A stretch of 64,000 nt of DNA from Paraspadella gotoi (lineage: Eukaryota; Animalia; Chaetognatha): the NCBI GenBank assembly GCA_051294375.1, contig CM119268.1:8675008-8739007 (forward strand). The letters run 5' to 3'. Both the position numbers and the translations under genes were made by a program. The notes below the pieces were generated by a model. That model did no database searches, was not told where the DNA came from, and was given only the letters and a program-made list of their open reading frames with translations. Shown here in pieces: positions 59,292-61,313 of this stretch; the stretch's first letter is position 1, and each line of letters starts with the position of its first letter.

Positions 59292-61313
59292 ATGTTTCTT
59301 TTATTATCAGTCATCTTTAATATTTTTTTAAACATGTTAGATCACGGTACCGATTTAAAAACTTCTTATGATTATTATTTTTCTTCAAATGAATACATTC
59401 GACAGTTAACATGGGCCATAGTTGGCATAATTTTGTTCCACAATATTCTTTCTGCTATCGTAAGTTTGAAGTTTATTGACAGAAACAGGGACTGTTATGC
59501 AAGACTGGTTCAAGGTCCATGGCAGATTTTCAATATAACAATGCATGTATTAGGTTTGGGATCAATTCCATTATGCCTCGACGAATATCTAGATAAAATA
59601 AAAAAAATCTACTTGACAAAAGAGCAAAAAGAGCATAAAAGCAATCATTTATTTCTACTTAACATTCTACATTCGTTGTTCGAGTCATATCCCCAACTTT
59701 TAGTTCAGATCTGCGTTGTGTTTATTAGTTGGACGAACACACCAACTGAATTCTGCTATCCTTTACCTGTGTTGTTAGGTGATACGAAAATCATCATCTT
59801 TAAATCATGAATGAACTATAATTTTAGCAGCTTGTAAACTAATACGTGAAAATATCCCAGTTAAATTTTTACTAATTTTCTTACATAATTAATATGTACT
59901 TGAATATCATCGCGACATTTTTAACTTCTTTTTTTACTAAAAAAGAGTATTATGGTGGACTAAAATCCACCAACCGTTCATCAGTGGCCATTGATGCTGG
60001 AGGCAAGTCATTCGCCTCTCAACCCAAAGGTCCGGGGTTCTAGCCCGGTGGCCGCCTAGCAATTAAGAGAGACGGGGCGCTTAACCCGCCTGTAACACGG
60101 TGTTACAGCCTGATCCGAAGCTCAGGGACTGCTTATATTGAACGGTTCTGTCACTAACACATAATAATTATTACTGTCTTTTCATTGGTGATCCCGACTT
60201 CCGAACACAACAGCAACAACACTTTCAGGCGACAGGCCTCATCCTGGCGATGCACTTTCGCCAAAACACATCAGGCGACTTGCCTCAACTTGGTGACGCA
60301 CTTTCCACCAAACAACAATTCACTGAAGAGACGCAACAGACTTCTCCCTACGGGGGGGGGATGTATGCTGGACTAAAATCCACCAACCGTTCATCAGTGG
60401 CCATTGGTGCCGGAGGCAAGTCATTACCTCCCAACCCAAAGGTCCGGGGTTCTAGCCCGGTGGCCGCCTAGCAGTTAAGAGGGACGGGGCGCTTAACCCC
60501 GCCTGTAACACGGTGTTACAGCCTGATCCGAAGCTCAGGGACAGTTTATATAGAACGGTTCTCACTAACACATAACAATTATTACTGTCTCTTCAGAATA
60601 GAGTATAGAGTATAATGATTTTACTTATCACCTGACAGAAACAACGAATAAACCAGTGGATATTGGAATTAATGAAAGTACTGGAGAGATTAAATATACA
60701 TATAAGTTACAACAAACCATACATACACCTTTGAGTGATACACACTACTATTATAAATTAACAGAGGAAATGGTTAGCAGTAAGCAACACAAATGTTCTT
60801 GTAATTTTGCCGATTCGACAAAAAATTATTTCATCGAATTCTTATGCCAATGGGAGGTTAAGAATTATTGGCCTTTTCTTTCTATTTCCATTTCAACCGT
60901 CAGTCTGGCAAAAGCAGCTGCAATCTTTAGAGCCGACTCATTTATAAATGATATTCAAGTTAAGACAAAAAAATATTTAGAAATAATTGGTTTGATTCAA
61001 GGGATTTTGGGTTTATCTGTTTCTTTGTACATAATGTACATTAAGGTGGTTAAAGTGTCTATTTTAATCGTGTTTTTAACACCTTTTTGTTTATTGCGAA
61101 TATTAACTCCAACTGAAATTAGGAGGTTATTTAGGGTATCGAATAAAAAAGATGATCACTTCATGCAAAAAAAGCCTGAACCAAGAACCTTTCAGTTGGT
61201 AGCAATGGTATTGTTTAATGCCATTTGCTTTTCATTTTTTATCATCATCGAAAAACAAATAATCATCAGCAACTTCGCCATTTTAAGACTCAGTAATGTC
61301 CAGAAGCATTCAG
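59292..61313 (+). CDS. XK-related (XKR/CED-8 family) multi-pass membrane protein, divergent; 3' end not resolved
   Basis: Family-like motifs LDHGTDLKTSYDYY (TM1) and LHSLFESYPQLLVQ (TM3). Phase-1 intron 59779-60638 joins ORFs 59265..59810 and 60656..61333. Donor CAG|GTAAAT at 61313. Confidence 0.75.
59950..60595 (+). mobile_element. TRIM-like non-autonomous LTR retroelement (LTRs 59950-60184 and 60362-60595)
   Basis: Two ~235-bp direct repeats end in ...TTCA, and the 3' copy starts TGTA. PBS-like TGGTGATCCCGAC at 60186-60198. Polypurine tract G9A at 60352-60361. Imperfect 5-bp TSD GAGTA/GAATA. Confidence 0.8.
59984..60056 (+). ncRNA. tRNA-like cloverleaf inside the 5' LTR (second copy ~60397-60468); not a functional tRNA gene
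   Basis: 73 nt. Acceptor stem GTGGCCA/TGGCCGC, D-arm with GG, T-arm CCGGG-GTTCTAG-CCCGG (B-box-like). The anticodon stem is mismatched. Confidence 0.65.

Follow-up and report, generated by a model that had tools for sequence, protein, structure and literature searches.

What the short LTR element at 59951–60595 is, and how it could define the ends of its own RNA, is the question raised by this locus in the 64,000-nucleotide stretch of Paraspadella gotoi DNA analysed here (the window). The reading that we favour, to which we assign a probability of about 0.55, is that of a Helenus-type TRIM that would work as an animal LTR retrozyme driven by Pol III, through a twister-mediated circle route.

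Boundaries and dispersal of the element

Contigs of other copies break before 59951 and before 60364, and the LTR borders are therefore placed at 59951–60184 and 60364–60595. Within these borders lies a 645-bp non-coding LTR element with TA...CA ends (59951–60595; all features on the plus strand), which comprises a 5′ LTR of 234 bp (59951–60184) with loose contig ends at both borders in 4/4 runs, a core of 179 bp (60185–60363) that is likewise non-coding, and a 3′ LTR of 232 bp (60364–60595) with loose contig ends at 60364 and 60595. Both LTRs end in TA...CA, and as direct repeats they exhibit 219 identical columns, 9 transitions, 3 transversions and 4 gap columns. The LTR opens with a predicted 7-bp hairpin (59953–59972) that resembles those of the core, and the predicted fold of 59951–59983 has a z of −3.1 with none of 200 shuffles equally stable. 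One base past LTR1 follows a tRNA-Trp-like primer-binding site (PBS, 60186–60198), and a repeat search together with folding delineates two 46-nt tandem units (60225–60314) with two predicted hairpins apiece; the fold of 60222–60320 has a z of −3.2, again with 0/200 shuffles as stable, and these units are a candidate packaging signal. A polypurine tract (PPT, G9A) occupies 60352–60361. The longest ATG frame within the element is 73 aa, the sole stop-to-stop frame inside it (109 aa) has no Pfam match, and neither RT nor integrase families were detected by Pfam among the 149 window frames scanned.

These borders alter the initial annotation in several details. Its two repeats of ~235 bp are retained, at 93% identity, whereas the span that it proposed gives way to a start at 59951 and LTRs of 234/232 bp; its 177-bp core becomes 179 bp, since contigs of other copies break at 60364; and its G9A tract is present next to LTR2 but stops 2 nt short instead of abutting it. 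The TG..CA ends that it expected are replaced by TA...CA, as read from the contig breaks at the LTR borders. Its imperfect target-site duplication is now read as putative 4-bp copies at 59947–59950 and 60596–60599 that are alike in 3/4 letters in the window element, and the flank consensus of other copies has ATAT abutting the LTR on both sides. A TG start at 60362 was rejected, as contigs of other copies break before 60364 instead; a 5-bp target site and readings requiring deletions in LTR1 were dropped after the LTR2-contig junctions.

Other copies were assessed through contigs of public runs aligned to the region; the four runs used come from three studies on a single organism and contributed 14,299, 18,597, 2,589 and 1,130 aligned contigs. 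Among the matches listed (24 of 1,125), loose ends occur behind 60184 in 161, 157, 61 and 37 contigs and behind 60595 in 44, 55, 21 and 15 contigs of the four runs, and they also pile up before 59947–59951. When LTR2 alone is aligned, a left break before 60364 is seen in 88 and 75 contigs and a right break behind 60595 in 116 and 77 (among the matches listed, 12 of 361). ATAT flanks the LTR2-type breaks on both sides in the flank consensus of other copies, and the flanks beyond the LTR ends are unrelated (agreement 0.40–0.49). Single contigs span one whole LTR with unlike flanks on either side, the pattern expected of solo LTRs, and LTR-to-PBS junctions recur among contigs of other copies. In the two runs that cover the flanks, the summed depth of LTR and core, which is a depth and not a copy number, exceeds the flank depth by a factor of thousands. 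The element is thus a dispersed high-copy family with fixed LTR ends at many insertion sites.

This upholds the classification as a TRIM made in the initial annotation, with LTRs, PBS, PPT, no coding capacity, fixed ends and a core that recurs in many copies. The two contrary outcomes that it had named were looked for as well: in place of SINE-like variable ends the ends are fixed and the internal core recurs, and hundreds of distinct junction contigs speak against a single local duplication. That the locus is a one-off repeat, or a SINE with a local duplication around it, can be dismissed almost entirely: the tRNA-like head is SINE-like and a similarity search of the 64-kb window found no second full copy, but the sharp termini, the 4-bp target preference, the presence of a PBS and a PPT and the junction contigs of other copies refute it. 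A tRNA-SINE proper, which would start at the tRNA head, carry a variable 3′ tail and have no LTR, PBS or PPT, is likewise rejected, the LTR termini being fixed.

tRNA-like heads and the relation to Helenus

Each LTR carries a tRNA-like head (acceptor stem of 7 bp, T-arm of 5 bp) with A- and B-box-like words, at 59984–60055 in LTR1 (A-box-like 59992–60003, B-box-like 60036–60046) and at 60397–60467 in LTR2 (A-box-like 60405–60416, B-box-like 60448–60458); the anticodon arm of the LTR1 head is unpaired. Across the whole window a cloverleaf descriptor finds both heads and one AT-rich chance site, and it matches shuffled LTRs in 2 of 20,000 cases, in agreement with the tRNA-shaped segment with a B-box-like word that had been annotated in each LTR. 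Judged by the motifs in PMC10886601, the B-box GGTTC is exact in the heads, and the A box fits TRG..GG, though TRGCY not exactly. Neither head is called as a tRNA by ARAGORN at default settings or by Rfam up to E 10. With the ARAGORN threshold relaxed to 85%, 59984–60056 is called, which is not evidential because it is one of 15 such calls in the window. Rfam finds no 5S rRNA match in the LTR. In most copies no T4 run follows the tRNA head, an absence that is not significant, as 795 of 5,000 shuffles likewise have none.

The PBS was compared by eye with the 3′ end of honeybee tRNA-Trp (Fig. S2 of PMC10886601); 12/13 positions pair and the thirteenth is a G-U wobble, which bears out the tRNA-Trp complement that had been proposed for this site. 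Most other copies carry a G at 60192, a mismatch against the honeybee tRNA-Trp at the wobble position.

TRIMs with tRNA-derived sequence in their LTRs were named Helenus (TRIMp3) by Kojima 2024 and described from six animal phyla, with lengths of 311–1263 bp (PMC10886601). Animal Helenus families have 4-bp target sites and Gypsy partners that are inferred there from PBS likeness; Helenus-2_SyJa is primed by tRNA-Trp, the proposed origin of the group is the insertion of a SINE into an LTR, and Pol III transcription of Helenus itself is an inference of that paper (PMC10886601). The element possesses the Helenus features assessed, namely the short non-coding two-LTR form, a tRNA-like segment with A and B boxes in each LTR, PBS and PPT, and multi-copy and solo-LTR junctions. 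Its 645 bp fall inside the published length range, its ATAT-flank consensus fits a 4-bp target, and its TA...CA ends are also found in four of the hymenopteran families compared (PMC10886601). The nearest layouts are those of Helenus-2_SyJa and Helenus-2_SyUm. What sets the element apart from the described Helenus families is a head placed close to the beginning of the LTR, the lack of a T run behind it and the twister-like module that comes next; by eye, a T run follows the head in most hymenopteran Helenus LTRs of PMC10886601.

Judged by these sequence features, the element is a new family within the published Helenus kind. The family listing of PMC10886601 contains no Helenus of matching lengths, and a term search of its supplement found no occurrence of four of six short element motifs; the other two appear there, one as the Trp PBS only and one in Ajax, probably by chance. 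A 12-mer common to the element and Ajax LTRs was set aside as likely chance. Pol III transcription and a Trp-primed partner are proposed for the element. The earlier suggestion of an animal, tRNA-based counterpart of Cassandra thus stands as far as a tRNA-derived-LTR TRIM in an animal is concerned and loses its novelty to Helenus, and its implication that no such family had been described does not hold, as Helenus/TRIMp3 was published in 2024 with animal and Trp-primed families included (PMC10886601). With Cassandra and Ajax, as described in PMC10886601, the element would share a Pol III promoter derived from a small RNA inside a TRIM LTR; theirs is 5S-derived, whereas the LTR here has no 5S match.

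A twister-like module in the LTRs

Behind the tRNA head of LTR2 lies a type-P5 twister-like module of 77 bases (60470–60546) whose parts follow the order of a circularly permuted twister. It consists of P5 (60470–76 with 60540–46), P2′ (60479–82), GA (60483–84), T1′ (60485–87), a 6-nt P1 linker (60488–93), UAA (60494–96) with a predicted cut between 60494 and 60495, P2 (60497–500), the GC of T2 (60501–02), a P3 hairpin (60504–20), P4 (60522–26 with 60535–39) and L4, a loop ending in AAGC (60527–34). The corresponding module of LTR1 (60058–60133; predicted cut between 60082 and 60083) matches at the core level only.

Two descriptors, both written after the motif had been seen, were used to gauge this resemblance, the order of the domains being that of Table 1 in Liu 2021 (PMC8501958) and of the Rfam Twister-P5 consensus. 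The strict one, built on the Liu table, finds the full layout in LTR2 and the core in both LTRs, LTR1 failing the full layout; in 100,000 LTR shuffles the core arises 94 times and the full layout not once. Of 17 loci retrieved with twister-loop patterns the relaxed one recovers 14, including 11/11 Rfam-called Twister-P5 examples, and it has LTR2 as its sole site in the window, with no match in 200,000 LTR shuffles or in 100 window shuffles. Core nucleotides, P2/P4 and T1/T2 are all present in LTR2 in type-P5 order, with one P2 mismatch. Both pseudoknots are present; in T1 both strands differ from the comparison set, CCG with CGG standing in place of CCC/GGG, and that set is uninformative on T1 variability because it was fetched with a fixed loop pattern. 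In most copies the 7-bp P5 is fully paired and a G at 60070 keeps the first P2 pair intact; the LTR1 module of the window copy departs from them at 60062 (P5) and 60070 (P2), and the departures of its two LTRs in P5 and in the first P2 pair are private to this copy. None of the 13 variable LTR positions lies within the 36 twister-core positions, which would occur in ~11% of cases by chance and is not significant.

The module shares with type-P5 twisters (RF02684) and the T-variants of Perere-3 the order and identity of UAA, GC, AAGC and GA, the helices P2, P3 and P4, the contacts T1 and T2 and an association with retroelements (PMC8501958). Twister variants head RTE elements, the T-variants of Perere-3 being RTE-linked (Liu 2021, PMC8501958), and the P3 hairpin resembles P3 of the Schistosoma RTE twisters described in the same source. 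Differences from these relatives are the 6-nt self-complementary P1 linker, the swapped T1 pair, the joint presence of a P3 hairpin and P5, a score below the Rfam threshold and the location in an LTR rather than at the 5′ end of a LINE. In the Rfam Twister-P5 consensus P1 is long and a P3 hairpin is missing, and Rfam (RF02684) gives no twister match in the LTR up to E 10. P1 is 6 nt long vs 15–30 nt in 11/11 natural type-P5 examples, and a closed P1 hairpin is absent, two copies being needed for P1 to form; twisters without P1 still cleave, if inefficiently (PMC8501958). P2 contains a C-A mismatch and a C run of 3 or 4 depending on the copy, and L4 is closed by A-U rather than G-C. The linker is one of 9 self-complementary six-mers among the 227 of LTR2.

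By nearest-neighbour energies the preferred structure is a blocking hairpin in which T1′ and P2 are sequestered (pair probability 0.98–0.99, with P2 near 0). For two copies, the swapped dimer is calculated at about −35 kcal/mol against a co-fold minimum of −60 to −65, and so lies 25–30 kcal/mol above it with pseudoknots uncounted. In external collections, the 28-nt tRNA-arm pattern has 0 loci in metagenome contigs and the twister with the swapped T1 pair 0 loci in the viral collection; the P4/L4 hairpin has 11 metagenome and 9 viral loci, none similar beyond ~27 nt and all judged chance. From the sequence comparison we regard twister ancestry of the fold as very probable, and we consider it probable, with less assurance, that the predicted twister would be active with a role in the life cycle.

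Several other sites in the window resemble parts of the LTR. On the minus strand, a 284-bp TG...CA element at 19027–19310 (repeated at ~15670–15953) combines a tRNA-like head with a degenerate type-P1 twister that Rfam scores as Twister-P5 at 14.9 bits (E 0.85, below gathering); its flanks are 3/4 alike, it differs from the LTR module by both-sided changes at the P4 closing pair and at T1, and it may be either a SINE or a solo LTR from a second tRNA-plus-twister family. A decayed LTR relative on the plus strand at 24058–24175 has internal deletions, its tRNA arm and the two ends of its twister module being preserved; the local alignment scores 87, compared with 48.5 for the best of 300 shuffles. 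At 61890–62070, on the minus strand, a tRNA-like head like that of the LTR is followed by CA and the start of a Trp-like PBS, the sole other such site in the window and probably the remnant of an LTR from a sister family. A short P4/L4 hairpin match at 13787–13803 (plus strand) may be a fragment or chance.

Proposed life cycle, competing readings and genomic context

In the model that we favour, transcription by Pol III would begin at the LTR1 head (~59984) and run through the element, read-through being proposed because most copies have no T4 run. A predicted competing hairpin, together with a P1 reduced to a self-complementary linker of 6 nt, would keep a lone twister module inactive. In a full transcript both LTR modules would pair via the linker and exchange halves, as its self-complementarity could allow two modules to form P1 in this way. 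Cuts between 60082 and 60083 and between 60494 and 60495 would release a 412-nt unit, which would be ligated into a circle that contains a single LTR together with PBS and PPT; because it has no terminal repeat, this unit would have to circularise before reverse transcription, as is argued for plant retrozymes. A Ty3/Gypsy partner would then reverse-transcribe the circle from tRNA-Trp and integrate at ATAT-like 4-bp sites. The lone module within the 412-nt circle would stay blocked, and the sequence of the circle junction would equal the LTR itself.

Three other readings of the module bear on this model. The first, which we hold to be rather unlikely, is that of an ordinary Helenus TRIM with linear Pol III RNA and normal strand transfer, in which the twister-like stretch would be an inactive passenger from a tRNA-headed SINE with an RTE-derived body. 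The origin of Helenus by SINE insertion into an LTR (PMC10886601) and the place of twister variants at the head of RTE elements (PMC8501958) are consistent with this, as are the short P1, the P2 mismatch, the blocking hairpin and the Rfam negative. RTE twisters are type-P1, however, whereas the order here is type-P5. The extra P5 stem pairs along its whole length in most copies, and both strands of T1 are altered; taken together, the type-P5 order, the paired P5 and the altered T1 are hard to obtain without selection on the fold. Nor are abundant free SINE ends seen at the tRNA 5′ boundary among the matches listed (12 of 361).

An active ribozyme that serves as an end-former, cutting mainly the 3′ LTR in place of a Pol III terminator and leaving a linear RNA with ~99-nt terminal repeats for normal strand transfer, appears improbable to us. 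The element has no T4 run behind its head, unlike most hymenopteran Helenus LTRs as judged by eye, and with the cut site downstream of the head a terminal repeat would remain if LTR1 were uncut. Against this, the same module is present in both LTRs with nothing obvious to spare LTR1, and plant LTR retrozymes of the same layout form circles (PMC4918200, PMC7761336). That the twister match is coincidental, and that the hairpins of a plain Helenus element act as signals for packaging or dimerisation, seems to us highly improbable. Rfam is negative, the descriptors postdate the sighting of the motif and in the co-fold the palindromic P3 makes the copies pair strongly with one another, yet the relaxed descriptor has no match in 200,000 shuffles while recovering all 11 Rfam-called P5 twisters, and Rfam aligns a loop of the related window element at 19027–19310 to Twister-P5.

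The retrozyme-like circle route has its closest precedent in plant LTR retrozymes (PMC4918200, PMC7761336), which are likewise non-autonomous LTR elements with a self-cleaving motif in each LTR (twister-like and predicted here), PBS, PPT, a 4-bp target (probable here) and a presumed Ty3/Gypsy partner, and for which a blocked ribozyme conformation is predicted too. They differ in their type III hammerhead and Met PBS, as opposed to the twister-like module and Trp-like PBS of the element, in a size of 600–1000 vs the 412-nt unit, and in that cleavage and circles are shown for them and predicted for the element (PMC4918200, PMC7761336). The element further differs in its animal host and its putative tRNA-type internal promoter; a promoter is reported in a plant retrozyme LTR (PMC9695139). 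Metazoan retrozymes are described as having no LTR, PBS or PPT. Rfam finds no hammerhead match in the element LTRs, and the element is therefore not a retrozyme as defined, although it would likely work like one. No twister-bearing LTR element or ribozyme-bearing Helenus was found in the literature searched, with Repbase, Dfam and most subscription journals outside the search, and PMC10886601 mentions neither twisters nor a ribozyme in Helenus. As far as could be searched, a twister module in a TRIM LTR is new.

In the LTRs of two Trp-primed wasp families, Helenus-2_SyJa-LTR and Helenus-2_SyUm-LTR, hammerhead core motifs with plausible helices were seen by eye behind the tRNA-like part. By eye, neither LTR has a T run at that place, and PMC10886601 passes over the hammerhead. 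Their position at the same LTR place suggests, on sequence grounds, that a ribozyme-bearing design recurs. As a tentative extension, which we regard as possible without favouring it, the element would be an animal LTR retrozyme with its own Pol III promoter, a twister in place of the hammerhead and an obligate two-copy switch, such that only a complete two-LTR transcript would cut itself and the 412-nt circle would be self-locked; together with the wasp hammerhead LTRs it would form a ribozyme-bearing TRIMp3 class in which a ribozyme of interchangeable class would replace the Pol III terminator. Should the fold cleave, the element would join the separately described TRIMp3 elements and retrozymes, and twister ribozymes would gain a role in LTR retrotransposition. 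The model, if true, would also account for the way in which a terminator-less Pol III TRIM sets the ends of its RNA. Its prediction is a circular RNA of viroid size, made by a very-high-copy family.

In its genomic context, the element lies between two open frames of an XK-related membrane protein gene (59256–59810, PF09815, and 60602–61333), probably close to the 3′ end of an intron of an XK-related gene. An XK-related paralogue covers both gene pieces in two runs, and a protein search found no close relative of the XK-like piece among longer proteins. Protein searches of the window frames gave 14 unnamed or hypothetical matches at 27–36% identity, and Atlas leads stayed below 0.9. Elsewhere in the window are Peritrophin-A, pacifastin, ionotropic-receptor-like and expanded-like FERM exons (485–1728, 8363–9422, 17735–21517 and 40644–44711). 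Taken by itself, this domain content would suggest an arthropod remote from the well-sampled insects. The expanded-like exon has matches at 32–42%, the best of them, at 36–42%, in a sea urchin, spiders and crustaceans, which makes a hymenopteran host improbable. Finally, 3.3-kb tandem duplications at 15354–22038 and 51843–58407 are each split by a 25-base N gap, and both are likely assembly duplicates.
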